Shown here: one piece after another, positions 1,205-42,364 of the stretch
Position numbering within the stretch: position 1 is the first letter of the stretch
How the letters are laid out: the number at the start of each line of letters is the position of its first letter
Assembly (NCBI GenBank): GCA_003696445.1
Contig: RFHE01000177.1
Span: 1 to 45,494 of the forward strand
DNA: 45,494 nucleotides
Reading direction: 5' to 3'
Source: Calditrichota bacterium
GTDB taxonomy: Bacteria; Calditrichota; Calditrichia; RBG-13-44-9; J042
Notes under the pieces: model-generated
What the model was told of the DNA's origin: nothing
What the model saw: only the letters and a program-made list of their open reading frames with translations
Databases searched by the model: none
Translations under genes and position numbers: made by a program

Positions 1205-2119
1205 ATGACCAAACCCAGCACCGGAAACAGCACCCAGTATTTGCTGCCCGAAGTGGTATCCCGACTTAAAAATCTGGAATTGGTGGCCCGCATGATTGTG
1301 GAGGGCTTCCTGGTCGGGCTGCACAAGAGCCCCTTTCACGGTTTCAGTGTGGAGTTCAGCGAACACCGCCAGTACATGCCCGGCGACGATATCCGTGACA
1401 TCGACTGGAAAGTTTACGGGCGCACCGACCGGTTTTACATCAAACAGTACGAAGAGGAAACCAACCTGAAGGCCTACCTTCTGCTGGATGTATCCGGTTC
1501 CATGGGCTACAGCAGTCATTCCATCAGCAAACTGGACTACGCCCGCTACCTGGCCGCTGCGCTGGCCTATCTGCTGCTCAAGCAGCGGGATGCGGTGGGG
1601 TTGACCCTGTTTTCGGATCGCATCCACAAAATGTTGCCGGCCAAATCCACCAGTAATTACCTCAAGTTTCTGCTGAAGGCCCTGCACGAGGCCGAGCCGC
1701 AGCCAAGCACTACCGCGGTGGCCGACACCCTTCACCGCATGGCCGAAAAACTGAAGCGGCGGGGCATGGTCATTCTGCTTTCTGAATTTCTCTACGAACC
1801 AGCCGAGCAAATTGTGCAGGGGTTGCGCCACTTTCGCTACTACGGCCATGAGGTGCTGGTGTTCAACATCCTCGATCCGAAAGACCGCTATTTTGATTTT
1901 AGCGACGAAGCCACCTTCGTGGATCTGGAAACTGGAGAAAAGCTGAAAACCCAGCCCTACTTCATTCAGTGGGACTATGTGCAACTGATTGAACAATTTT
2001 ACGGAAGGCTCAAAAACCAGTGCTACGGCATGCAGATCGACTTTGAGAATGTACTGACCAGCGAAAGCTTCGAAAAGCCCCTGCTCCGGTTTTTACTCAA
2101 GCGCCAGAAGATGCTGTGA
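1205..2119 (+). CDS. DUF58 family protein (vWA-like, usually MoxR-associated)
   Basis: GLHKSPFHGFSVEFSEHRQYMPGDDIRDIDWK and LLLDVSGSM motifs; GGAGG RBS upstream. Confidence 0.92.
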   Translation: MTKPSTGNSTQYLLPEVVSRLKNLELVARMIVEGFLVGLHKSPFHGFSVEFSEHRQYMPGDDIRDIDWKVYGRTDRFYIKQYEEETNLKAYLLLDVSGSMGYSSHSISKLDYARYLAAALAYLLLKQRDAVGLTLFSDRIHKMLPAKSTSNYLKFLLKALHEAEPQPSTTAVADTLHRMAEKLKRRGMVILLSEFLYEPAEQIVQGLRHFRYYGHEVLVFNILDPKDRYFDFSDEATFVDLETGEKLKTQPYFIQWDYVQLIEQFYGRLKNQCYGMQIDFENVLTSESFEKPLLRFLLKRQKML

Positions 2120-2126
2120 GCGGGTT

Positions 2127-3770
2127 TTACAGGTTCGCGCTCAGGGCAACCTGCCAGCGATCCAGTTGGATCAGATCGCTGCCCAGAAATGCATCCAGCC
2201 GAAACCGCTTCCAGCGAAAGCCCAGGCCGGCCATGGCCTCGCGGTCAATCGCCCGGGTACTGGAGCGATTTTCGATCTCACGCCTGGAGGGCAAATCGCC
2301 CAGCCTTCTGGAATGCTGGTCAGTATCCCGCCAGTGCCATACCACTCCCAGGCGGGCCTGAATGGGACCCACTTCGCCCTCCAGCGCAACCGGCAAATTC
2401 AAAGCGGTCTCGCGCGTACGATCCAGGGCAGGAATTTCATCCATTACATCCAGTTGGTCGGTCACCGAATCCCTGACCGTAACCTGGTGATCTTCGAAAG
2501 CCAGTGGCGCGCTGATTTTGGTTCGCACATAGCTCAGCTGCAGCCCAGCCAGAATACGGGCCCGCCGATGAACGGGAATTACCTGCCCCACGCCGCCCCG
2601 GAAAGCCACAAGGGTATTGCTCCCGTTTGCGGATTGCTGGCTTGTTTCTTCCATGCGGAAATTAAAACTTCCCGAGCCGGTTTGCTTCCTCACATCCTGG
2701 AGGGCATCATCCTGCATTTCTCTACTCTTGAAGCGGGCGATACGGGCAAACAAATGGAGGCGGGTCAAACCGCGCCAGCCCTCCACCCCACCTTCCCAGG
2801 CATACAACCGGTACACACCGGGTCCGAGCGTCCGATGGTCAAATTGGCTGGTATTGGTGAATGGATTGGGAGGATTGGAATACACATTACGCTCGAACAT
2901 GGAGACTTCGTTATTGATCCAAAAGCGGCTTCGATAGTATTTCCAGCGCAATTGCGGCAAAATATCCCATTTGCCTGCAGAAATGCGGGCACCAAGCGCC
3001 AGCTCGTGCCCCCGCCATGGCTGCCCGCTACCGGAACTGCTGAAATTTTTTACCTCCCGATCCAGGCCCGATCCGCTGGAGCTGAATGTCTCACGAAGCT
3101 GAAACTCATTCTGGCTTTTTCGCTGCAAATAATAAAACCGGTAACTGAAGGCCACCTGTACATTCGACCGGTTGAGCACGCCCAGCCAAAGCTGTGCGCT
3201 GAACTCATCGCTTACCGCCAGTTTCTGGCTCGTGCTTTCCCGGTTGTTCTGCCCTCCCGAATTGGAAAAGGCTAGATTATCGCTGAGCGAACTGCTCTGC
3301 TTGTCGGTGATTCCTCGAAAAAAAACCCCGGCCGAAAGGCCTTTGCCAAAGAGGCGACTACTCCAGTAACCCAGCGACAGTACCGGCCCCCGGGTGAGCG
3401 TTCCTCCGGCTGCAGCCGGGGCAACCAGCTCACCCCCGGATTCATCGCTACCAGTCCCGGTAATTCTTTGAAATGGTAAAATTTCAGGTTCCGGGCGGGG
3501 CGCATAATCCACCACCACCCTGTCCCCAGAAATCTGAAACAGTGCCGCGGGGTGGACAAACAGATCGGTCAGGGTATCCTGCACCAGACCGGCAAAGCCG
3601 GCCCCCAGCGCCCGCATCCGCACTGACAAATAGGGAATCTCGCTTACTGGGAAAACAATGCTACTTCCGCTAATTAAAGCATTTACTCGATGCTCGAAAT
3701 GCTGAGCCAGTACAGGCGTGTACAAAGCACTGCAGAGGACCACAAACACGATTGGCCGGTGGGCTTTCAT
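2127..3770 (-). CDS. Exported hypothetical protein, probable outer-membrane beta-barrel with FadL/PorV-like N-terminal hatch motif
   Basis: Signal peptide MKAHRPIVFVVLCSALYTPVLA; MRALGAGFAGLVQDTLTDLFVHPAAL resembles the AR.MG.A..A...D.....NPA.L motif; many amphipathic beta-strands. Start moved from 3860 to ATG 3770. Confidence 0.6.
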   Translation of the reverse strand: MKAHRPIVFVVLCSALYTPVLAQHFEHRVNALISGSSIVFPVSEIPYLSVRMRALGAGFAGLVQDTLTDLFVHPAALFQISGDRVVVDYAPRPEPEILPFQRITGTGSDESGGELVAPAAAGGTLTRGPVLSLGYWSSRLFGKGLSAGVFFRGITDKQSSSLSDNLAFSNSGGQNNRESTSQKLAVSDEFSAQLWLGVLNRSNVQVAFSYRFYYLQRKSQNEFQLRETFSSSGSGLDREVKNFSSSGSGQPWRGHELALGARISAGKWDILPQLRWKYYRSRFWINNEVSMFERNVYSNPPNPFTNTSQFDHRTLGPGVYRLYAWEGGVEGWRGLTRLHLFARIARFKSREMQDDALQDVRKQTGSGSFNFRMEETSQQSANGSNTLVAFRGGVGQVIPVHRRARILAGLQLSYVRTKISAPLAFEDHQVTVRDSVTDQLDVMDEIPALDRTRETALNLPVALEGEVGPIQARLGVVWHWRDTDQHSRRLGDLPSRREIENRSSTRAIDREAMAGLGFRWKRFRLDAFLGSDLIQLDRWQVALSANL

Positions 3771-4043
3771 GACCAACCCTCCTCTCCAACCAGAACCAAA
3801 CCACCTTTTCAGGGTAGTAAAAAGTAATTGTACAACATTTGCTAAACAAGAGGTGCCCAAATTTTCTCCAATTCTTTTAAAAATAGCCCTTTTTTCTCCC
3901 TGATATCAAAAGCGCCACTCCACAAAAGTATCCTTTTTTATTTTTTTCGAGAGAACCAAGCGGCCTATGCCTGGCACAGTTGTTATCCGTGGTGTTAGGT
4001 TCAATTAAGGCTGCGGCAGGGGCGAGCCTGCGGGTCAGGGCCT

Positions 4044-5198
4044 TTAAGAAGCGGAGAGGGGCTGGTAAGGCCGGAGCTGGAATGGTTCTGCGGAGAGCAG
4101 GCCGGTACCCAGTAAGGTCAGAAAAGCCACTGGAGCGAGGCTTTGAGAGCTCTGGGCTCTAAGGCGGGGCACCGGTAAAAGGGCTGGCTTGCCGATCAGG
4201 CGGGCCACTGCTTCCACTACGGGCAAGCGGGTCGCCTCCGGGCCGCACACCACCAGCAAAGCGCTACTCAATACAGAATCGGGTAAGCGGTAAAGGAGGG
4301 TTTGAAGCGTCCCCAGAAAACTACGCCAACTATCAGGCATATCTTCCGGCAACCCTTTCTCGAACCGGCTCGCTGCGCGAGTGCGCTGGTTTCCTTCATC
4401 GTGCGGGTATTCTGTGCCTCCCAAGCGCTCCAGCACCGCCTGCACTTGAATTTGCCCCTCCTCGGGCATGGGACAGGCCAATTGCCGGAATAGGTGCATT
4501 GTGCCCTCAACTTGCAGGCATAGGCCAATCGCTCCCGGATGCAAAAGGACGCAAAGCACCGGTAAAGGTGTTGGAACAACCATCCCAAGGGCCTGAGAGA
4601 GACCGGCACTGAAATGGAAATATTCCACCTGGCGCCAGGTCCAGTGGTTCAGCAGTGCTTCCCACGGCTTGATCAGGCGGGATGGAAACACTTGCACCAG
4701 CACCTGGCTGGTCTGTCCTGGGCCAGCCAGATGGGTTCGTAACAGTTCCCATCGCCAGTAATCTCCTGGCTTAAATTCTGGAATTTCTTTTTTCAGCAGA
4801 TAAAGCACAGGCTTTTCCAGAAAGTGCGGGTCCAGGGTTCGGGGAATTTTCAGGATAGACTGATAAAGTCCCGGCAAGCCGAGGCCGATACGCAGCTCAA
4901 TAGGTCCCTTGCTTTTCCGATGGACATGGTTCAGTAAGTCCTGCAGTTCCTTCAGGTCAAGCAGGGATTGACGGGCAATACACACTTCCCCATACTGGAG
5001 GGTTTGGAAACGGCCCTGAAACTGATCTCCAACCAGATAATAAACCATGCCGGGATGAATTTCCAGGCATAGGACTCGGGTTGCCCGCAGGCGCTGCCAA
5101 GGCTTGAGTTTGACGCCGACGGGGATTTCGCGTATCTTTATCCATGTGGAGGGCGAACTTGATGTGGGTGGTGGTTTCCCAGCTCCACGGCTTTGCAC
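4044..5198 (-). CDS. Highly diverged PilM/GspL-like actin-fold protein
   Basis: N-terminal VLCLEIHPG (PilM: LGLDIG); C-terminal LLVVCGPEATRLPVVEAVARLIGKPALLPVP and LAPVAFLTLLGTGLL follow the PilM I.L.GG.A...L...LG.PV and A.GLAL pattern; follows pilD; GGAGG before the GTG start. Confidence 0.55.
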   Translation of the reverse strand: MQSRGAGKPPPTSSSPSTWIKIREIPVGVKLKPWQRLRATRVLCLEIHPGMVYYLVGDQFQGRFQTLQYGEVCIARQSLLDLKELQDLLNHVHRKSKGPIELRIGLGLPGLYQSILKIPRTLDPHFLEKPVLYLLKKEIPEFKPGDYWRWELLRTHLAGPGQTSQVLVQVFPSRLIKPWEALLNHWTWRQVEYFHFSAGLSQALGMVVPTPLPVLCVLLHPGAIGLCLQVEGTMHLFRQLACPMPEEGQIQVQAVLERLGGTEYPHDEGNQRTRAASRFEKGLPEDMPDSWRSFLGTLQTLLYRLPDSVLSSALLVVCGPEATRLPVVEAVARLIGKPALLPVPRLRAQSSQSLAPVAFLTLLGTGLLSAEPFQLRPYQPLSAS

Positions 5199-5222
5199 AG
5201 TTGCACACCTCCCAGCAATCTA

Positions 5223-5999
5223 TCAGGGTACACTGGCAACCAATTCTGCAACCCCCGGCCAGCCGGAGGGATAAGCGCCCCACAACAGAAGTACAATCAT
5301 GCCAATGGCCAGGAAGGGCACAAAAGGAATGCTTGCCTGTACTCGGGGATTTCGCAAAAAAGCAGGCAACAAGCCAGCCACCCCGGCAAGTAAAAAGCCG
5401 ATTAAAATAGCGAACAGTATGGCAGTGGGTCCTAAAAAAATCCCGGCGGCGGCAGCCAACTGGATATCACCGAAACCAACCAGTGATTCTCTTCCCAGAA
5501 GTTTACTGAGAAGGACCACCAGGGCCAGAACGGACCCCCCCATTGCAGCCCCAAGGCATACCATGGACCACGGCTGAACCTGCAGCAGCAAATTGGCAGC
5601 CAGCCCGGAAACAAGCATCAGCACAATCAGGCGGTTTGGGATCAACTGCAATTCAGCATCAATCAAACTGATTGTGATTAAAAAACAACAAAAGAGGCCG
5701 TAAAAGAAAAACGGCCCGGTAAATCCGAACCGCCCATAGAGGGCCAGACCGGACAAGGCGGTGCTTAATTCGATAATCGGGTAGCGCACCGAAATGGGAA
5801 AATGACAGTAAAAGCAACGGCCTTTTAGAAACATATAGGAAATCAGTGGAATTTTAAAGTAGGGGGCCAGGTACATATGGCAGCTTGGACAGAAAGATCC
5901 AGTTCGAAACAGTGCAATGTGCCGGGGCAGTCGATAAGCACATTTTCCAAGAAATTCCCCAATCAGGAGCCCGAGAAAAAAAACCACCGTCCAGTTCAT
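5223..5999 (-). CDS. pilD: Prepilin peptidase / N-methyltransferase (A24A family)
   Basis: YRLP, CPSC...CFYC zinc site, ISVRYPIIEL, catalytic LID and GFGD, IPFxPFL, multiple TM helices. Confidence 0.9.
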   Translation of the reverse strand: MNWTVVFFLGLLIGEFLGKCAYRLPRHIALFRTGSFCPSCHMYLAPYFKIPLISYMFLKGRCFYCHFPISVRYPIIELSTALSGLALYGRFGFTGPFFFYGLFCCFLITISLIDAELQLIPNRLIVLMLVSGLAANLLLQVQPWSMVCLGAAMGGSVLALVVLLSKLLGRESLVGFGDIQLAAAAGIFLGPTAILFAILIGFLLAGVAGLLPAFLRNPRVQASIPFVPFLAIGMIVLLLWGAYPSGWPGVAELVASVP

Positions 6000-6086
6000 C
6001 GCCACGGTTCCGTAAATTTTGTACTCGCTTATTGCCGTTCCGTTTTTTTTTATCGGCTTAAATTGGCCTCGAGGTCAGGAGAAAAA

Positions 6087-7805
6087 TTATTTCACACTAC
6101 CGGCAAGCACCTGTGCTGTTCGAGCCGGAGAAAGGGATGTGGGGCTTACATCGGACGGGGAGATGCCCAGTTGGCCAAAGAGTTGTTGCACAGCCTGCCA
6201 GTCGGTAACTCCGCGCCGGATCAATGCCCAGGCATTCTCCTGAAACGAAATCCGGTGAGCGCTGCCATTCACAATGTCCTCCACCGAGGCTTGCTGGTGC
6301 AATGCTTTTCTCAATTCCGGCGATGCCGGTAAAAATTCCTGAATAAGCACCCATCCAGCATACCCGGTAAAACCACAGGCTGGACACCCCACGGCGCCCC
6401 CGGAGAGTTCTGCCCCGCCGGTTGGTACCAGCCCTGCCCTCGGTAAAGCCACCGGGCGGCAACGAGTACAGAGTGCAGGTAATTTGTGCACGGCTACTGC
6501 GGCACTGAATACTGCAGCCAGATCTTGCGGGGCCACCTTCTGTTGCAGGTGCTCCAGGGCAGAAAAAACAGTGGGTTTTTCCAGAACCAGCACAACCAGG
6601 CGTCGCCGGGCTTCCTGAACAGCGAGGGCAATAGCCGCTTTCTCCCCCGCCGGTTCCAAAACAACGACCTCCGGCTCCAGGCTTAGAAAACTGCGCAATA
6701 AAGCCCCTGGACCAGGCTCATGTCCTGTTTGCCAGCGCAATTTGACCACGCCCGGAATCCAGGGGGAAACTTGCCGTTCGATGATTAGCAGCCTCTTCCC
6801 CTCCATTTTCAGCATTTCCAGTTCAAGGTTGAGCCGACCTCGCACCGGGGACTCCAGCCTACCGGAGAGGAGAACAAGTCCGTTATTCTTCCGTAAAAGT
6901 TCGGGAATGTATTTGAAATTGGGATGCTCAGCCGGGCGTGGCGTTTCTTTCCCCTCTTGCAGGTGTTCCACCCACTGGAGGCTTAACTCAAACCGATGTG
7001 CATTTTTTTTCCACCGAAGCCGTGCACCAAACTCTGCCTGGTGGGCTGGTAAAACCAGTGTGGCATTGTTCTTTTCTTCCACCATTTCCCACCGGCACCC
7101 ACCCAATTTGAATAGCTGCCTGAGCAGCGACGGCCAAAGAATGGAGGGAACGGCGAAATGTTCTTTTTCCCAATGCTCGGTTTCCAACTCCAACCTAACC
7201 GCATTGCCTGGCAGGTAAAAAGCATGGAGGAGCCCCCTTCGCTCGGCAACCCGGGCCAGAAGCAAGCGAACAAAGCTATCTACCAGATTGCTCCCCTCGG
7301 ATGGCAACGCTCCTTGGGCATTCAGGTAATCCCGAAGCCATCCCAGAGCCTGGGAGAGCCTGCGCCAGGTGTGTGCGACCTCCCGCTGGACTCCAAACAT
7401 CCAGCGAACTTCCATACCGCACCGCCATTCCAGCCAGCGCTCCTGCTCGCCAGTCAGGGGTAAAGCAGCTACGACATTCAGAGGCGGTGTCTGCCCTATT
7501 AGCGTCAAAATTTGCCAGGCCTGCAGCCGGTTTGCCCCCAGGGCAAAAATCTGCTCAATATCGGGTTGACAAACGCTGGGATTTCTCCCACAAATTCCCA
7601 ACCGGCGCCACACCAGGCGGTAAAGTTGTTCTGCGGTCAATATGCCCCGGGCCAATAACAGGTTTTGGAGAAACACAGGCTCTTGCTCAAGTGGTGCAAG
7701 CAATTGTTTCAGTTGACGGGAGGAGAGGATCTCGTTTTTTAGCAAGAGGGGAATCAGCCAACCATCGGCCACCCGCGGTGCAGTGTTGCGATCTTCCTTG
7801 TTCAT
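6087..7805 (-). CDS. PilB/GspE-family secretion ATPase homologue with degenerate Walker A/B and MshEN motifs (pseudo-ATPase)
   Basis: MshEN-like tandem helical repeat at the N-terminus; GLVLLSGRLESPVRGRL at the Walker A position; LEPEVVVLEP at Walker B; tetracysteine LCTRC...GCPACGFTGYAG retained. ATG 7805 preferred because the predicted sigma-54 start site is near 7846. Confidence 0.8.
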   Translation of the reverse strand: MNKEDRNTAPRVADGWLIPLLLKNEILSSRQLKQLLAPLEQEPVFLQNLLLARGILTAEQLYRLVWRRLGICGRNPSVCQPDIEQIFALGANRLQAWQILTLIGQTPPLNVVAALPLTGEQERWLEWRCGMEVRWMFGVQREVAHTWRRLSQALGWLRDYLNAQGALPSEGSNLVDSFVRLLLARVAERRGLLHAFYLPGNAVRLELETEHWEKEHFAVPSILWPSLLRQLFKLGGCRWEMVEEKNNATLVLPAHQAEFGARLRWKKNAHRFELSLQWVEHLQEGKETPRPAEHPNFKYIPELLRKNNGLVLLSGRLESPVRGRLNLELEMLKMEGKRLLIIERQVSPWIPGVVKLRWQTGHEPGPGALLRSFLSLEPEVVVLEPAGEKAAIALAVQEARRRLVVLVLEKPTVFSALEHLQQKVAPQDLAAVFSAAVAVHKLPALCTRCRPVALPRAGLVPTGGAELSGGAVGCPACGFTGYAGWVLIQEFLPASPELRKALHQQASVEDIVNGSAHRISFQENAWALIRRGVTDWQAVQQLFGQLGISPSDVSPTSLSPARTAQVLAGSVK

Positions 7806-7856
7806 CTTGAAAGCCCCTTCCCTGGAATTTCCGTTTTTTTGAATCAATTATTCTTG

Positions 7857-7873
7857 TGCAGTTATTGTGCCAG
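7857..7873 (-). promoter_or_regulatory. Sigma-54 (-24/-12) promoter
   Basis: CTGGCACAATAACTGCA on the minus strand, exact GG-N10-GC spacing, about 50 bp upstream of the PilB-like ATG. Confidence 0.75.
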
Positions 7874-7954
7874 AAAAGCGCGCTCCATAGCAACGAGGCC
7901 CTGCACCAGATTGGAAGGGTAAAACAGCCAGGAATGACAGAAGGAAACTCAGGC

Positions 7955-7975
7955 AGTGTCGCTTTTTTCGACACT
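7955..7975. promoter_or_regulatory. Palindromic putative enhancer (bEBP upstream activating sequence)
   Basis: AGTGTCG-N7-CGACACT (TGT-N11-ACA), centred about 120 bp upstream of the predicted sigma-54 start site; ACTCAGGC direct repeats at 7947-7954 and 7973-7980. Confidence 0.5.
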
Positions 7976-7994
7976 CAGGCGGGCGAAGATGTGT

Positions 7995-9407
7995 TTAGCG
8001 AGCCTTTTTATACAACCGGACGGCAAAGGAGCCATCCATCTTATGGCGATGGGGAAAAGTGCGAACAAAGCATTTGCTCCACAGGTACTGAGCCGGCAGT
8101 TCCCCGCTAAGCTCCTCGGAAACAAATTCGGGATGGGTTTCCAGAAACTGCTGAACCACCTGTTCGTTTTCTTGAGGGTCGATGGTACAGGTGCTGTAAA
8201 CCAGCCGTCCGCCTGGTTTCAGGAGTTGGGCAGCGCAATCCAGCAGGCGCAGTTGGAGCTGACTCATGTTTTCAATGTCCTGCTGGCTCCGTTTCCACTT
8301 TAAATCCACTCGTTTTTGCAGCACGCCCAGTCCACTGCAGGGGGCATCCAGAAGGATGCGGTCGAAACGAAGGGTGGTTGGGCAAGCCAACGCATCGGCG
8401 CATACGGTAGTGGCACAGTCCACCCCAAAACGGCGCAAATTGTCGGCCAGCATTTTCGCCCGATGCAGGTGCCTTTCCAAAGTAACCAGCCGTCCTTTAT
8501 TGTTCATTAATTCGGCAATGTAGTTGGATTTCCCGCCGGGAGCCGCACACATATCCAGAATAGTCTCCCCCGGCCTTGGCTGTAGGAGTCGAACCGGAAT
8601 TCCGGTGCTGACATCCTGAATGGAAATCCACCCCTTACGCATTAAATCCAATTTGCGAAACTCGCTAAAATTGTCGATGGCCAGGAATTCGGGGAAATCT
8701 GGATGGATCTGATATTGAATGCTGTTTTCTTCCAGAATTTTAAAAACAACTTCCCGGTTAGCCTGAAGGGAATTGATACGGCCGTAAATACGGGGCCGCT
8801 GATTGTTGGCTTCGCACAGTTTCATCGCCTCATCAATGCCCCAAAACTCCACCCAGCGTTGCAACAACCAGAAAGGATGGGAATAGCGGACCGCTACCCG
8901 TTCCAGGTAAGGTAATTCGATTTCGGCCAGTTCCAGCCGCCGGGCCTGCCGCAAGTAATTGCGTAAAATGGCATTAACCAGGTTGGCTGTTTTTTGATTA
9001 AACCGCTTCTTGGCAATTTCCACCGCCTCGTTTAAAACCGCGTAGGGGGGGATGCGATCCAGGTACATTAACTGGTAAAGCGAGGCGCGAAGATTGTTTT
9101 TTACCTCGGGAATGAGATCTTCGTAACTGCCCACATAAAGCTGCTGAAGGTACCAGTCCAACCGATAGCGCCAGCGGAGGGTGCCATTGACCACTTCGGT
9201 AATCAGGGCACGATCCACCTCGTTAAACTCCTCCACCTCTCTCTCCAGTAAACGATCGGTATAGGCCTGTTGCGTATCCACACGGGTCAGAATTTCCACA
9301 ATTTTTGCCCGAGCATTAATCTGGGATTCCGGCTGGCTGCTTTTAGCCCGCCCTCCATTACCCGAGCCACTGGGTACAGCGGAGGCTTGTTCTTCCCGAT
9401 AGTCCAT
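7995..9407 (-). CDS. rsmB: 16S rRNA (cytosine967-C5)-methyltransferase with N-terminal NusB domain
   Basis: NusB-like AVLNEAVEIAK and NLVNAILRN; ILDMCAAPGGKS, ILLDAPCSGLG, LVYSTCT. Confidence 0.93.
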   Translation of the reverse strand: MDYREEQASAVPSGSGNGGRAKSSQPESQINARAKIVEILTRVDTQQAYTDRLLEREVEEFNEVDRALITEVVNGTLRWRYRLDWYLQQLYVGSYEDLIPEVKNNLRASLYQLMYLDRIPPYAVLNEAVEIAKKRFNQKTANLVNAILRNYLRQARRLELAEIELPYLERVAVRYSHPFWLLQRWVEFWGIDEAMKLCEANNQRPRIYGRINSLQANREVVFKILEENSIQYQIHPDFPEFLAIDNFSEFRKLDLMRKGWISIQDVSTGIPVRLLQPRPGETILDMCAAPGGKSNYIAELMNNKGRLVTLERHLHRAKMLADNLRRFGVDCATTVCADALACPTTLRFDRILLDAPCSGLGVLQKRVDLKWKRSQQDIENMSQLQLRLLDCAAQLLKPGGRLVYSTCTIDPQENEQVVQQFLETHPEFVSEELSGELPAQYLWSKCFVRTFPHRHKMDGSFAVRLYKKAR

Positions 9408-9605
9408 ATTTTATTTGCACAATCCAGGTTTAGGGAACATTTGCCGTTTAATCCAGCTGACCGGTCCATTTCGGCTGTTTAACCAGCCTTTGTTCTACCG
9501 GCTTTTTCCATTAAACTCCCCTATTGAGGAAAGGTTTTACGGACCCCATCTTCACAAATTGAACCTTCCCTTTTGGGTCAGCGGAAAGCCTACTCGGCCC
9601 CTGCT

Positions 9606-10439
9606 CTACTCGTGACTGGTTTTGTGTGCAGGCTGGTAAGGCACCGGGATGTACTGAACGCCGCCTGCCCGCCGTACGGGTTGAGGGAACAGGCTCATGA
9701 AATCGTAAATTTCTTCCGGCATTTCCGTGGATACCGGCAAGCCAATTCGTTTAGCTTCCTCAGGCATAATCGGGTAATCGTGAGTCCAGTGTCCCATGGC
9801 CAGTAGATCGGCAATCTGTTCGGCCTTTTCCTTATCCATTTTTCCATCCAGGATTTCCTGAACGGTGGCTTTTAATTGCCGGATAGCCTTTTCCCCCACA
9901 TCGCCCATGATCAGGGTCTGATCATCTACTTTGTCCGGCTTTTTCTTTTCGATAGCGGCAAGGATGGAGGCGGCCGGAAACTGCCCCAGTTGCGGATCGA
10001 CCGGACCCAGCACCGCATTGTGGTCCATAACGATCTCGTCCGCCGCCAGCGCGATAAGTGTTCCCCCTGACATGGCATAGTGGGGAACGAATACGGTGAC
10101 TTTTCCCGGATGGCGCTTCAAGCCCATGGCAATTTGTTTAGCAGCCAGGGCCAAACCGCCGGGCGTGTGAACGATTAGGTCGATGGGCATGTTGGGATCG
10201 GTAAGTTTAATAGCCCGCAAAATCTCTTCCGAGTCCTCAATGTTAATAAAACGCATCACCGGAAAACCGAGCACGCTCATGGTTTCCTGGCGATGAACCA
10301 TCGCAATTAACCGGCTGCCTCGGTTCTGCTCAATCTTGCGCATCAACCGTACCCGGGCGGATTCCAGCATACGCTGGCGAATGATCGGCTGAATGGCGGT
10401 AATAATGAAAAACAGCCAGAACAAATCCATAATACTCAT
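9606..10439 (-). CDS. SDH-family ClpP-fold serine protease with N-terminal membrane anchor
   Basis: HTPGG, VPHYAMSGGTLIALAADEI, LGPVDPQ, WTHDYPI; start MSIMDLFW at 10439 after GAGGGGG (the longer ORF overlaps the rhomboid gene). Confidence 0.88.
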   Translation of the reverse strand: MSIMDLFWLFFIITAIQPIIRQRMLESARVRLMRKIEQNRGSRLIAMVHRQETMSVLGFPVMRFINIEDSEEILRAIKLTDPNMPIDLIVHTPGGLALAAKQIAMGLKRHPGKVTVFVPHYAMSGGTLIALAADEIVMDHNAVLGPVDPQLGQFPAASILAAIEKKKPDKVDDQTLIMGDVGEKAIRQLKATVQEILDGKMDKEKAEQIADLLAMGHWTHDYPIMPEEAKRIGLPVSTEMPEEIYDFMSLFPQPVRRAGGVQYIPVPYQPAHKTSHE

Positions 10440-34373: not shown

Positions 34374-35768
34374 TCACATGTTGTATTTGCGCAATTTGTT
34401 GCGCAGGGTTCGAATGGTAAAGCCAAGGCGTTTGGCGGCCTGCGTTTTATTCCCTCCGGTTTCGATCAATGCCTGACGAATGATTTCCCGCTCGCAGGCT
34501 TCCAATTTTTCCCGGTAGCTTAATGCATCGGCATTGTGAAGAATGTCCATAAGCGAAGTTCGAGCCTGCCGTGGGGTCTGCAAATAGGCCGGCAAATCCC
34601 CTGGTTCAATAAATTCACCTTCACACATAATAATGGCATTTTCAATGGCATTCTCCAGTTCGCGCACATTCCCCGGCCAGTCGTAGGCCAGGAGCACCTT
34701 CCGTGCCGCCTCACTGATCCCACGCACCCGTGGGTTGTTTTTCTTGGCATACTTTTGAATAAAATGATCGGTGAGCGGACCGATGTCCTCCAACCGGTCT
34801 CGCAGAGGGGGAATAAAGATGGGGACGACATTCAACCGGTAATACAAATCTTCCCGGAAGCGACCTTCTTGCATCAATGCCTCCAGATCGGCATTGGTAG
34901 CAGCGATCAGGCGTACGTCCACCTCGATGCTGGTCACGCCCCCCACGCGAGAGAATCGCTGCTCCTGCAACACCCGCAGCAACTTGGCCTGAAGTGCCAT
35001 GGACAACTCGCCAATCTCGTCCAAAAACAGGGTGCCCTCATGGGCCAGTTCGAATTTGCCCTTTTTCATCCGGTAGGCACCGGTAAAAGAGCCTTTTTCG
35101 TGACCGAAAAGCTCGCTTTCCAACAAATTTTCGGGAATAGAGGCACAATTAATCTCCACCAGGGGTTTGTCCCGCCGGGAACTTTGATAGTGAATGGCCC
35201 GCGCGATCAACTCCTTGCCCGTACCGCTTTCGCCCCGCAAAAGCACCGTCGCATCGGTATTAGCCACTTTTACGATTTTTTGAAACACTTCCTGCATTTT
35301 GCCGCTGAAACCAATGATGTTCTCGAAGCGATAGGTTTCAGCGATTTTAGATTTCAGATCGATGTTTTCGGAAATTAACCGTTGTTCGTCCAGAGCGCGC
35401 CGAATGATGATTAACAATTCGTCCAGATTGATCGGCTTGGTCAGATAATCGTAAATGCCCAACTTCATGGCATGGACCGCATTTTTCACCGAGCCGAAGG
35501 CGGTCATCATGATAATTTTCACATTGGCCTGCTCTTCCAGCAAAATCCTGGCCAGTTCCAGACCGTCCTGATCAGGCAGTAAATAGTCCAGCAAAACCAC
35601 GTTAAAGGGACTGCCTCTCAGCTCCTGAAGGGCTTCTTTGGCCGAGCGGGCTTTGACCACTTCGTAAGTTTCGTCTTCCAGAATTTCAGCCAGACCGTTG
35701 AGGGTGTTAATGTCGTCCTCAACAATTAGAATGCGATCCTTCATGATCACGTCTTCACTTACCTGCAC
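34374..35768 (-). CDS. NtrC-family sigma-54-dependent response regulator (REC-AAA+-Fis HTH)
   Basis: LLDYLLP receiver, GESGTGKE, ESELFGHEKGSFTGA, LFLDEIGE, FREDLYYRLNV, WPGNVRELEN, GGNKTQAAKRLG. Confidence 0.96.
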   Translation of the reverse strand: MQVSEDVIMKDRILIVEDDINTLNGLAEILEDETYEVVKARSAKEALQELRGSPFNVVLLDYLLPDQDGLELARILLEEQANVKIIMMTAFGSVKNAVHAMKLGIYDYLTKPINLDELLIIIRRALDEQRLISENIDLKSKIAETYRFENIIGFSGKMQEVFQKIVKVANTDATVLLRGESGTGKELIARAIHYQSSRRDKPLVEINCASIPENLLESELFGHEKGSFTGAYRMKKGKFELAHEGTLFLDEIGELSMALQAKLLRVLQEQRFSRVGGVTSIEVDVRLIAATNADLEALMQEGRFREDLYYRLNVVPIFIPPLRDRLEDIGPLTDHFIQKYAKKNNPRVRGISEAARKVLLAYDWPGNVRELENAIENAIIMCEGEFIEPGDLPAYLQTPRQARTSLMDILHNADALSYREKLEACEREIIRQALIETGGNKTQAAKRLGFTIRTLRNKLRKYNM

Positions 35769-35794
35769 ATAAACTCCTCTATTTTTCTTGCAAA

Positions 35795-37624
35795 TTATTG
35801 CTTCAGGCTTGCCGAGTCAATGGGCAGTTCGATGAAAACGCGAGTACCTATCCCTTCTTCACTTTCCAGGTAAATGCGGCCCCGATGGCCTTCTACAATC
35901 TGGCGTGCAATAGCTAGTCCCAGGCCAGTTCCAGTGGGTTTGGTGGTGTAGTAAAATTCGAATACGTTTTCTAACTCGTCCGGAGGGATACCTCTGCCGG
36001 AATCCTCGAAAGTAATGCGTACCATGGGGATGGCTTTTTCGCTTTCCCTATCCAGAGCACTGATCCGGCTGGTCCGAATGACTAATTTACCCCCCTTCTC
36101 CATAGCCTGGAAAGCGTTGACCACAATGTTGTGAAACACCTGCTTCAACTGGTTGGTGTCGAACATGCCAACCAGCGGGGTCGAATAAAATTGGCGGCAG
36201 ATCTGAATGTTTTCTTTTTTGGCTTTGCCTTCGTGAAGAAGAATGACCTCCTCCAGGGTTTGATGGATATCGCTTTTCACCAAGTTTAATTCCGGCGGCC
36301 GGGAGATGGCCATGAAGTTGGAAACCAGCTCATTCATTCGGGAGATTTCCGAAGCAATCACATTCAAGTACTTGAGTTTTCGGGATTCGGACACATCGCT
36401 GCGAAACATGATGCGCTTGAGGATTTGCATGTTGATGTTCATGGCGTTAAGCGGGTTGCGGATTTCGTGGCTGACCAGGGAAGCGAACCGGCTGAGGGCG
36501 GCCAGACGTTCCATGCGCTGCAGTTCCCGCTGGATGCGCAGTAGCGAGCCGGCCATAGCATTAAACTCTCCGGCCAGTTCGGCCAGCTCGTCCCGCGAAT
36601 GGATGGAAATACGATGGGCCAGGTTACCGCGAGCAAATTCCCTTGCGCCGGCCACCAGCCGGGCAAGTGGGCGGGTAAAACGGCGCACGCCAAAGATACC
36701 CAGCACAATAGCAATCACAATGGTCAGGGCGACAAACAGGAGCACCCGGGCCTGCATCTGCCGGGCCAGGGTAAAGGCTTCCCGGCGCGTTTGCTGAATG
36801 ACAATTCCCCAGCCCAAACGGGGTACCGGCACGTAGGCGGCGATGAAATCCTCTCCATCCATCCGATACTGGGTAATTCCTTCCTCCCCATTCCTCAACG
36901 CCTGAACAAACTGGTAATTGGAGTAATTGGCCCTTTCGAACACTTTCTCCTTGTCCAGATGAGCAATGACCACCCCTTCTGCACTGAGCAGATAGGCATT
37001 GCCGGTCTTTCCGATTTTAATGTTATCCACCAACTCCCAAATGCTTTTCAGGTCCACTTCTGCGGCCAGAATGCCCACCACCTGATTGAATTTGAGAATG
37101 GGTTCCGCCACCAATAACACAGGGAAACGGGCATGGGTAAAATACACTTCGGAAACGTATTGCTCCCCTTCCATGGCTCGACGGAAGAAAGGGGTTTGTG
37201 CTAAATTGAGCATCTCCTCCCCAAAGCTGGTGGTCACCACCACAAAGCCGGCCTCGTCCAGAATAAAAATTTTGCGGAAGAAGGGATTCTCTTCTTTGAT
37301 CCGATTAACCAGGCTGCTTTGTGCAAAGCGTTCCATCTGCGAAATATCCCGGGTGAGGGCGGCGGTATGCAATACCGTCAGCGGCCCTTCCAGAAACAAG
37401 TAAATTTCGTTGGCAGCACGCCGGGCGGTCTCCAGATTGCGCTGGTGAATGTAGGTTTGCAGGGTGGCCTGGGTCAGGGAAATGAGGATAATGCTTACCA
37501 GAATGAGCGGCAGGGCGCCTAAGGCAACATAGGTGAGAACCATCTGGGTTGCAATACGGCGGACAAAGAAGCGATTAAAAAAACGCCGGAATGCCCGCCA
37601 CCGAGCCTTAAGACGCAATTGCAT
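35795..37624 (-). CDS. Membrane sensor histidine kinase (dCache-HAMP-HisKA-HATPase)
   Basis: Two TMs, IGKTGNAYLL..GVVIAH Cache motif, HAMP, SHEIRNPL, NAFQAM, DSGRGI, GTGLGL. Confidence 0.94.
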   Translation of the reverse strand: MQLRLKARWRAFRRFFNRFFVRRIATQMVLTYVALGALPLILVSIILISLTQATLQTYIHQRNLETARRAANEIYLFLEGPLTVLHTAALTRDISQMERFAQSSLVNRIKEENPFFRKIFILDEAGFVVVTTSFGEEMLNLAQTPFFRRAMEGEQYVSEVYFTHARFPVLLVAEPILKFNQVVGILAAEVDLKSIWELVDNIKIGKTGNAYLLSAEGVVIAHLDKEKVFERANYSNYQFVQALRNGEEGITQYRMDGEDFIAAYVPVPRLGWGIVIQQTRREAFTLARQMQARVLLFVALTIVIAIVLGIFGVRRFTRPLARLVAGAREFARGNLAHRISIHSRDELAELAGEFNAMAGSLLRIQRELQRMERLAALSRFASLVSHEIRNPLNAMNINMQILKRIMFRSDVSESRKLKYLNVIASEISRMNELVSNFMAISRPPELNLVKSDIHQTLEEVILLHEGKAKKENIQICRQFYSTPLVGMFDTNQLKQVFHNIVVNAFQAMEKGGKLVIRTSRISALDRESEKAIPMVRITFEDSGRGIPPDELENVFEFYYTTKPTGTGLGLAIARQIVEGHRGRIYLESEEGIGTRVFIELPIDSASLKQ

Positions 37625-37650
37625 GGCCAATACCGCTTTTTTGCTTAAAA

Positions 37651-41238: not shown

Positions 41239-42364
41239 ATGGTAGAAGAGATTACCAAAAACCTGGATCAAACCGAGCAAATACTGGAAAACTTACGGGG
41301 GTTTCTTTGAAATCCCCCGCCTAGAATCCGAAATTGCCGAGCTGGAGAAAAAATCCGCCGATCCAACCCTCTGGGAGAATCCCGAACAGGCCCAGCGAAT
41401 CCTTAAATCGTTGAATGACAAAAAAGAAAAGTTGCAAAGCTGGCGGGAGGCCTGGCAGCAGGTCCAGGATGCCAGACTGATGCTGGAACTGGCCCAAGAA
41501 GCGGAAGACGCCGAAGAGCTCAAAAACCTGCTTTCGGAAAGCCAGCGGTTGCTCAATCGGGCCAGGGAACTGGAATTGCAGGGGTTGCTTTCCCGCCCGG
41601 AGGACCGTAAAAATGCCATTCTGACCATTCATCCCGGTGCGGGTGGAACCGAAAGCCAGGACTGGGCGCAGATGCTAATGCGCATGTATTTGCGCTGGGC
41701 GGAACGAAAAGGATACAAAGCAGAAATCATGGACCTGCTTCCCGGGGAGGAAGCCGGGATTAAAAGCGTCACCATCGAAATCTCCGGTCCCTACGCCTAC
41801 GGATTTCTGAAAGCGGAAACCGGTGTTCATCGGCTGGTGCGCATCTCTCCTTTCGACGCCAGTGGAAGGCGCCATACCTCATTTGCCTCGGTCTTCGTGC
41901 TGCCCGAAATCGATGAGGAGATTGAAATTGAAATCAATCCAAACGATCTGCGCATCGACACGTTTCGGGCCAGCGGTGCCGGTGGACAGCACGTGAACCG
42001 AACCGATTCGGCGGTAAGAATCACCCATATCCCAACAGGAATCGTGGTCACCTGCCAGAGCGAACGCTCCCAGCACAAAAACAAAGCCAATGCCATGAAA
42101 ATCCTGAAGGCGCGCCTCTATCAGCGCAGGCTGGAAGAAAAACAAAAGGAGCGCCAAAAGATCGAGGAAAGTAAAAGCGAGATTGCCTGGGGTAATCAGA
42201 TTCGCTCCTACGTGTTTCATCCTTACAACCTGGTGAAAGATCACCGCACCGGTCACGAAACCGGGGATATTCAGAGGGTGATGGACGGAGAAATTGACGA
42301 TTTTATTTATGCTTACTTGTTGAATCCACCCGAGCAGGTGCGCCGGGAAGAAGAAAAAACTTAA
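41239..42364 (+). CDS. prfB: Peptide chain release factor 2, programmed +1 frameshift
   Basis: ATG 41239 gives 23 codons ending GGG TTT CTT then TGA (41308-41310); the +1 frame continues EIPRLESEIAELE... into the 41411 ORF; GAGGTES, SPF and GGQ motifs. Confidence 0.96.
41295..41311 (+). other. RF2 frameshift cassette (internal SD-like + CTT TGA)
   Basis: ACGGGGG TTT CTT TGA A. Confidence 0.92.

Follow-up and report, generated by a model that had tools for sequence, protein, structure and literature searches.

A reduced type IV pilus operon with a conserved pair of degenerate PilB-like and PilM-like proteins in a Calditrichota genome

Can the motor parts of a type IV pilus be kept by selection once the pilus itself is gone? 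This question is raised by a small gene group in a Calditrichota bacterium (assembly GCA_003696445.1, contig RFHE01000177.1, positions 1 to 45,494; the whole of this stretch is called the window here). Three uninterrupted open reading frames (ORFs) lie on the minus strand downstream of rsmB, at positions 6087-7847, 5223-6005, and 4044-5198, and are followed by a fourth at 2127-3860. The first of these encodes a PilB-like protein, the second the prepilin peptidase PilD, and the third a PilM-fold protein; we refer to the PilB-like and PilM-fold proteins as pilB* and pilM*. A first-pass annotation, made from the sequence alone, had proposed that the three genes form a new system, a sigma-54-driven pilus or secretion module without a motor. 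Its description of three full-length uninterrupted frames with type IV pilus folds was confirmed by Pfam passes for T2SSE and A24 and by a PilM-like fold in an AlphaFold2 (AF2) model. Annotation of the window neighbors likewise confirmed that no gene for a pilin, PilC/GspF, PilN/O, or a secretin adjoins them. Our results show that the locus is no new system but what is left of a type IVa pilus (T4aP) operon, including a pseudo-PilB and a pseudo-PilM that are conserved as a pair.

The origin of the locus was revealed by comparison with 86 species genomes of the phylum. In all 10 of the relatives' loci, PilD comes directly after a PilB of 721 to 834 amino acids, which carries an MshEN region, a T2SSE domain, and a C-terminal receiver (REC) domain and in which the catalytic motifs are all intact. 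Where the contigs continue, the downstream order is PilC, three to four pilins with canonical N-termini (G followed by F/A-T-L-I-E), a 600-amino-acid PilM-PilN fusion, PilO, a PilP-like protein, a secretin, and a PilT-like ATPase; PilC, pilin, PilM_2, PilO, Secretin, and the PilT-like ATPase are named there by Pfam. In 5 of these 10 loci, which all belong to one family, pilB is closely preceded by an rsmB orthologue (60 to 62% identity), as it is in the window. The locus is the positional counterpart and a deletion derivative of this complete T4aP operon, which the relatives keep syntenically, and the claim of a new system does not hold. The ancestral order, which the relatives retain, is pilB(MshEN-T2SSE-REC), pilD, pilC, pilins, pilM-pilN, pilO, pilP-like, pilQ, and pilT, from which only pilB*, pilD, and pilM* remain. 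pilD begins 81 bp downstream of pilB* and ends 24 bp upstream of pilM*; this 24-bp gap is what was left when pilC and the pilins were removed between pilD and pilM*, and everything beyond the PilM half is also gone.

Are the missing parts encoded elsewhere in the genome? The source assembly is 89% complete and consists of 404 contigs. When the relatives' operon proteins were searched against the whole assembly (tblastn), only pilD, pilB*, pilM*, and paralogues of another system at 24 to 30% identity were returned; none of these queries brought up a PilN or PilO homologue. The Pfam search for T2SSE gave one strong match (on contig C271), the weak match to pilB*, and a weak third match on contig C231, which we rejected as a pilus ATPase because it is an AAA_22 protein. 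Matches to T2SSF occurred on C271 only, and the single secretin match was on C256. No match to N_methyl (PF07963) was obtained in the genome at E ≤ 1. A regular expression for class III signal peptides, which in the control loci of seven relatives recovered 21 pilin N-termini, gave 22 hits in the genome, of which none was pilin-like.

We then asked what has become of the PilB-like protein. Its start is most likely the ATG at 7805, giving 572 amino acids, because the form in the protein collection has 572 amino acids and the orthologue described below matches it in length and likewise starts with MN. Against the Pfam T2SSE profile (PF00437), pilB* scored 36.3 bits, a weak pass (cutoff, 24.9) that covers profile positions 131 to 368 only, and the NCBIfam models for PilB and GspE gave 45 and 43 bits, for which the cutoffs are above 600. 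An ESM Atlas search returned only GspE/MshEN clusters. In a HMMER search of 1.84 billion representatives with pilB* as the query, 2,223 proteins were found at E ≤ 0.001, of which two were at E ≤ 1e-30: pilB* itself and P0007, a protein of 572 amino acids that is 48% identical to pilB* (26.6 bits against T2SSE) and has lost the same motifs. At E ≤ 1e-25, no pilB* orthologue outside the source genome was found in the order (37 genomes) or in the phylum (86 genomes), and P0007 as a query gave two unrelated weak matches in genome contigs and none in metagenome contigs.

Alignment of pilB* with PilB from the ten relatives revealed how far the catalytic core has eroded. The Walker A motif (GxxGxGK[ST]), which reads GPTGSGKT/S in all 10 relatives, is GRLESPVR in pilB* and GGLDAQVR in P0007, so that the loss is conserved and no intact GPTGSGKT is present in the orthologue. 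The Asp box EDPIEY of the relatives has become ERQVSP, the Walker B motif with the catalytic Glu has changed from DPDVILVGEIRD to EPEVVVLEPAGE, and the His box TGHLVLSTLHT is R-RLVVLVLEK. Overall, none of the six catalytic marks is present in either pilB* or P0007. The REC domain of the relatives' PilB is absent as well. The ten relatives share 195 invariant columns, of which pilB* keeps 42 and the T2SSE ATPase on C271 keeps 114. Identity between pilB* and the relatives' PilB is 17 to 20%, compared with 49 to 57% for the relatives' PilB between families. The tetracysteine (zinc) motif CxxC...CxxC, in contrast to these losses, is retained, and C446, C449, C474, and C477 are invariant in all 12 aligned sequences. 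The N-terminus of pilB* is colinear in the alignment with the relatives' MshEN region, for which P0007 scored 20.6 bits in Pfam (cutoff, 23.1). We considered this N-terminal domain as a receptor for cyclic di-GMP (c-di-GMP) and dropped the idea: the NCBIfam c-di-GMP motif scored 14.4 bits against a cutoff of 38, and the motif opens with W rather than R, in our reading of the alignment in pilB* and the relatives alike. These data suggest that pilB* would be unable to bind or hydrolyze ATP in the manner of a PilB and, hence, unable to power filament assembly.

A similar fate has befallen the PilM-fold protein. The third ORF had no match in Pfam or NCBIfam, including PilM_2 (PF11104), a profile on which the relatives' PilM-PilN fusions themselves score low (41.8 and 15.9 bits). 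Its AF2 model (predicted local distance difference test [pLDDT], 77.9; predicted template modeling score, 0.79) matched P. aeruginosa PilM in all of the top eight Protein Data Bank (PDB) chains returned by Foldseek (E from 2e-14 to 2e-13; best, 5eoy_A at 2.3e-14); T. thermophilus PilM-PilN (2ych_A) gave a TMq of 0.58, with FtsA and GspL ranking after. In the alignment, pilM* is colinear with the PilM part of the relatives' fusions and terminates at QLRP, a vestige of the NLxP motif at the N-terminus of PilN, where the fusions continue into PilN. Because the transmembrane and periplasmic PilN half is gone, pilM* should be soluble. The nucleotide motifs are degenerate: DIGxD is EIHPG (phosphate-1), DIGxDxT is LLHPG (phosphate-2), and S/TGxG is CGPE (adenosine). 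These replacements are also present in the one pilM* orthologue found, P0158 (383 amino acids, 52% identity). Identity to the relatives' PilM is 15 to 19%, and PilM is fast evolving everywhere (20 to 23% between families). Thus, the view of the first-pass annotation that both nucleotide-binding proteins are eroded was upheld, by 0 of 6 marks in pilB* and by these three motifs in pilM*.

The prepilin peptidase between them presents a different picture. PilD passed the Pfam cutoffs for both A24_N (PF06750; 85.3 bits) and Peptidase_A24 (PF01478; 59.4 bits), the latter being the single PF01478 match and PilD the sole A24 peptidase found in the assembly. As had been stated from the first reading, both catalytic Asp residues and four Cys are kept: LIDAE and GFGD align to the relatives' ID and GMGD motifs, and the N-terminal Cys residues are present as CPSC...CFYC. 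Identity to the relatives' PilD is 36 to 42% (between families, 40 to 49%). From its retained catalytic residues, the peptidase looks like a working enzyme.

Is the remnant maintained, or is it simply decaying? The orthologues at 48 and 52% identity share the losses of pilB* and pilM*, as described above. We simulated unconstrained substitution, without insertions or deletions, down to these identities, and the frame stayed open in 0 of 300 runs for each gene; the runs averaged 16 stops in pilB* and 10 in pilM* (minima, 6 and 3). Positions identical between pilB* and P0007 were clustered, with the observed variance reached in 70 of 5,000 permutations. Simple decay is unlikely, given losses common to the orthologues and the stops that unconstrained drift brought into every run, and to this extent the earlier argument from open frames is supported; by sequence criteria, the remnant looks selected rather than decaying. 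The 547-amino-acid barrel neighbor also has an orthologue, P0160 (48% identity), and P0007, P0158, and P0160 all report the same longest contig, of 52,995 bases. The three genes probably sit together in this second lineage, judging only from the equal contig figures. In a near-identical contig of 20,858 bases (run X1), we counted six substitutions, five of them in pilM*; three were synonymous and three nonsynonymous, too few for a test. One base was missing there at position 6043, in the pilB*-pilD spacer.

To ask whether the two degenerate proteins could still interact, we predicted the structure of the pair. Cofolding of pilB* with pilM* gave a median score of 0.71, while the best control gave 0.00; the mark used was reached by 116 of 157 solved complexes and by 2 of 215 mismatched pairs. 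At least 77% of the contacts were common to the runs, and the pLDDT of the partner was at least 73. The predicted contact joins residues 16 to 135 of pilB* to the actin-like pilM*. Contact residues of pilM* are identical in its orthologue in 26 of 34 cases, compared with 197 of 384 residues overall (hypergeometric P = 0.0016). The model supports, though it does not prove, binding of pilM* by the N-terminal domain of pilB*.

We propose, at a probability of about 0.55, that the locus is a deletion derivative of a T4aP operon kept by selection, in which pilB* and pilM* now form a nucleotide-independent scaffold or signaling pair that is cotranscribed with PilD. A repurposed scaffold or regulatory role, which had already been suggested at first reading, is also our best reading. 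The locus has lost pilC, the pilins, the pilN half, pilO, pilP, pilQ, and pilT; pilB*, pilD, and pilM*, which stayed behind, would under this proposal form one transcript. pilB* no longer has REC or any of its four catalytic motifs (Walker A, Asp box, Walker B including the catalytic Glu, and His box), and pilM* is without its PilN half and phosphate motifs. pilB* would still bind pilM* through the contact of N-terminal domain and actin-like domain, as in PilB-PilM and GspE-GspL. The soluble pair, descended from the motor and alignment subcomplex, would then act as a cytoplasmic scaffold or signaling unit and would not power a filament.

Several observations weigh against this proposal. The contact residues of pilB*, in contrast to those of pilM*, are no more conserved than the rest of the protein (16 of 31 versus 273 of 572). 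The cofolding score may owe something to the resemblance of the pair to structures already solved for GspE-GspL and PilM, since 4pht and 5eou are among the Foldseek matches. Gene order in the second lineage, including a pilD between the pilB* and pilM* genes, is inferred only from the equal contig figures. Synonymous codon bias is weaker in pilB* (0.044) and pilM* (0.070) than in any other window ORF of at least 200 codons (0.09 to 0.23), which fits low expression or weak selection. PilD shows some drift: 31 of 41 invariant columns are kept, compared with 41 of 41 to 42 in eight of the nine relatives, and the 10 changed positions include GSFLNV to GEFLGK and GDVK to GDIQ. Finally, with the assembly at 89% completeness, the missing pilus parts could lie in gaps.

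A bolder form of the proposal, which we regard as possible but rather doubtful, is that the two degenerate proteins form a dedicated pair of pseudoenzymes. A PilB fixed in the nucleotide-free state and bound to a nucleotide-blind PilM would serve as a constitutive signaling or scaffold device after loss of the pilus, with PilD redirected to a nonpilin substrate. pilB* could then exemplify a widespread and so far undescribed noncatalytic class of PilB/GspE proteins, because 53 of its 148 nearest T2SSE relatives in metagenomes miss at least two of the six catalytic marks. In this set (P0009 to P0156), 43 proteins are without GxxxxGK[ST], and P0042, P0124, and P0126 have none of the six marks. 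To judge from these sequences, degenerate PilB/GspE proteins appear to be frequent in metagenomes, and a full-text literature search, supplements aside, returned no description of a catalytically dead PilB/GspE.

Does pilB* instead belong to another machine? The genome carries a second type-IV-filament-like cluster, type-B, split over two contigs (C271:9225-15004 and C256:6-5305; loci L059 and L060; in relatives, L062 to L065). Type-B encodes a PilC-like protein, a T2SSE ATPase, three pilin-like proteins starting M-x-x-G-Q-S/T-L/I, a PilM-like protein, a secretin, and an Ig-domain protein; in relatives it is contiguous, with a PilT-like gene joining the two halves. Its PilC is 60 to 71% identical across most genomes of two families. 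Of the 41 genomes searched, 14 have no PF01478 match; type-B is present in 13 of these 14, two of the 13 being single-contig genomes. Because type-B is present in 13 of 14 genomes lacking PilD, it appears, by gene content, to work without a prepilin peptidase, which leaves PilD without an identified client here. Retention of PilD to serve type-B was rejected on account of the same 13 genomes, none of which has any A24 peptidase.

With this cluster in hand, we considered, after an example given in the first-pass annotation, that pilB*, with pilM*, could be a brake, an adaptor, or a mixed-ring subunit of the C271/C256 machine or of T4aP parts in the unassembled 11% of the genome. The canonical T2SSE ATPase encoded beside PilC-like, pilin-like, PilM-like, and secretin genes, the only other motor in the genome, would offer a partner, and pilB* retains the architecture and zinc-binding Cys motif of a PilB. 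There are also precedents: according to section 11 of PMC11656802, two-hybrid contacts occur between different pilus ATPases, and in Acinetobacter two extension ATPases serve one pilus. These findings, like the one on Myxococcus PilB taken up below, are precedents from that source and no evidence for this locus. However, type-B is conserved at 60 to 71% in many relatives, has its own PilM-like and PilT-like proteins, and is found where no prepilin peptidase is encoded; hence, it has no need of the locus. Moreover, the three genomes of the same family lack type-B but have the full T4aP operon, and with pilB* as the query the C271 ATPase was not detected in its own genome at E ≤ 0.001. We consider this explanation unlikely.

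Slow decay, in which pilB* and pilM* would be functionless relics not yet interrupted and only pilD, if any, would be useful, strikes us as more improbable still. Deletion of most of the operon, the missing catalytic motifs and REC domain of pilB*, its low identity to the relatives' PilB beside that between families, its codon bias (the weakest in the window), and the even split of the few differences to the near-identical contig all fit such a course. The second lineage, however, has orthologues (48 and 52% identity) of essentially the same lengths, in which the motifs have degenerated alike, whereas unconstrained drift left no run open and introduced at least six and at least three stops. 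Conservation is patchy rather than uniform, and the pilM* contact surface is conserved above background. We give least credence to a module centered on PilD, in which pilB* and pilM* would position or regulate a peptidase acting on nonpilin or atypical substrates: pilD is the only A24 peptidase gene in the assembly, keeps its catalytic Asp and Cys residues, and lies between the other two genes in a genome where neither the regular expression nor N_methyl found a pilin, but any such substrate is purely hypothetical, the 11% of the genome that is missing could hold pilins, and to our knowledge no contact of PilD with PilB or PilM has been described.

What remains of the regulatory signals that had been taken as a further argument against decay? 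The sigma-54-like site TGGCACAATAACTGCA is present with the right spacing, and it has one mismatch to TGGCACN5TTGCW. Genome-wide, TGGCAC-N5-YTGCW had seven matches, three of them intergenic, versus about 6.3 expected, so the site is not above chance. None of the 10 relatives' loci has such a site upstream of pilB, and the RpoN DNA-binding domain (PF04552) was not found in the assembly, at its 89% completeness, whereas it is present in five of five relatives. A Cache/HAMP histidine kinase and an NtrC-type sigma-54 activator are encoded as a pair in the window (34374-37630, minus strand; activator, 34374-35768). The palindrome that had been read as enhancer-like exists too, as a perfect 7-nt inverted repeat, and by our own rough estimate such a repeat is about what chance gives in 200 bases. 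Neither the promoter reading of the site nor the enhancer reading of the palindrome rose above chance, and we dropped both; "sigma-54-driven" was not sustained as a description, although sigma-54-driven expression of the module is possible from the sequence. Scans of positions 1900-9700 for sigma-70 promoters and terminators gave results at the level of shuffled sequence. The features of the locus are collected in Table 1.

TABLE 1 Features at and around the reduced pilus operon (window positions)
Feature	Position	Strand	Remarks
rsmB (16S rRNA m5C967 methyltransferase), synteny anchor upstream of module	7995..9407	-	NCBIfam PRK14902, 428.9 bits; Pfam Methyltr_RsmB-F + NusB
Inverted repeat AGTGTCG-N7-CGACACT	7955..7975		Perfect, 7 nt; 20 nt after rsmB stop; no T-run follows
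Sigma-54-like -24/-12 site TGGCACAATAACTGCA	7872-7857	-	Intergenic; 52 nt upstream of ATG at 7805; spacing correct (GG-N10-GC)
pilB*, 572-aa PilB/GspE-family pseudo-ATPase (MshEN-like N-domain, N2, C-terminal domain)	6087..7805	-	
pilD, prepilin peptidase/N-methyltransferase	5223..6005	-	Pfam A24_N_bact + Peptidase_A24
pilM*, 384-aa PilM-fold protein	4044..5198	-	Alignment to relatives' PilM-PilN fusions; AF2 fold
Secreted 547-aa protein, predicted outer membrane beta-barrel	2127..3770	-	Probably outside module; 273-bp gap after pilM*

The 547-amino-acid neighbor has an N-terminus like a signal peptide and belongs to no known family. Its AF2 model is all-beta and of low confidence (pLDDT, 59.9), and the Foldseek matches, all to outer membrane barrels, were weak. 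Homologues were found in 3 of the 85 other genomes of the phylum, none of them next to pilus genes. We rejected the protein as a substitute for the secretin, given the position of these homologues and the low-confidence barrel model, and treated it as a bystander. The remainder of the 45-kb window holds ordinary chromosomal housekeeping and signaling genes. Among these, the ORF for release factor 2 (41411-42364, plus strand) begins at position 37 of the PCRF profile, which probably reflects the usual programmed +1 frameshift of prfB, with the N-terminus in another frame upstream.

Should the pilB*-pilM* pair have a function, components of a type IV pilus motor can persist after loss of the pilus and gain a role other than that of a motor, and nature would offer a parallel to the signaling by nucleotide-free PilB found in the laboratory. 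One may also ask what a prepilin peptidase is doing in a genome that yielded no canonical pilin. If the operon is merely dying slowly, it is a case of ordinary gene loss in an uncultivated bacterium.

How does the locus compare with known systems? With the T4aP ATPase PilB, pilB* shares a colinear N-domain, N2, and C-terminal domain, a T2SSE score above the cutoff, the tetracysteine motif, a position beside pilD and downstream of rsmB, and a predicted contact with a PilM-fold protein through the N-domain. It differs in having no Walker A, Asp box, Walker B with catalytic Glu, His box, or REC domain, and it cannot be classified as an active PilB. Likewise, pilM* shares the fold of PilM (5EOU/5EOY and 2YCH) and of the cytoplasmic domain of GspL, with Foldseek E values of about 1e-14, and is homologous to and colinear with the PilM-PilN fusions of its clade, but it is without a PilM_2 match, nucleotide motifs, and the PilN half. 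PilD has both Pfam domains of MEROPS A24A, both catalytic Asp motifs, the four Cys, and near-normal identity, whereas the genome yielded neither a pilin substrate nor a cognate PilC, and 10 of 41 invariant positions are altered. The closest functional parallel is with M. xanthus. There, exopolysaccharide is under the control of PilB without involvement of the pilus, apparently by PilB in its substrate-free state, in the account given in section 13 of PMC11656802; in that source and in PMC5544727, this action of PilB as a signal rather than a motor is ascribed to the nucleotide-free state. Whereas PilB of M. xanthus is also the active motor of a complete machine, the machine is gone here. By analogy, the proposed pair resembles this pilus-independent signaling, and a pilB* unable to bind nucleotide would be locked in the state to which the signaling of the Myxococcus protein is attributed.

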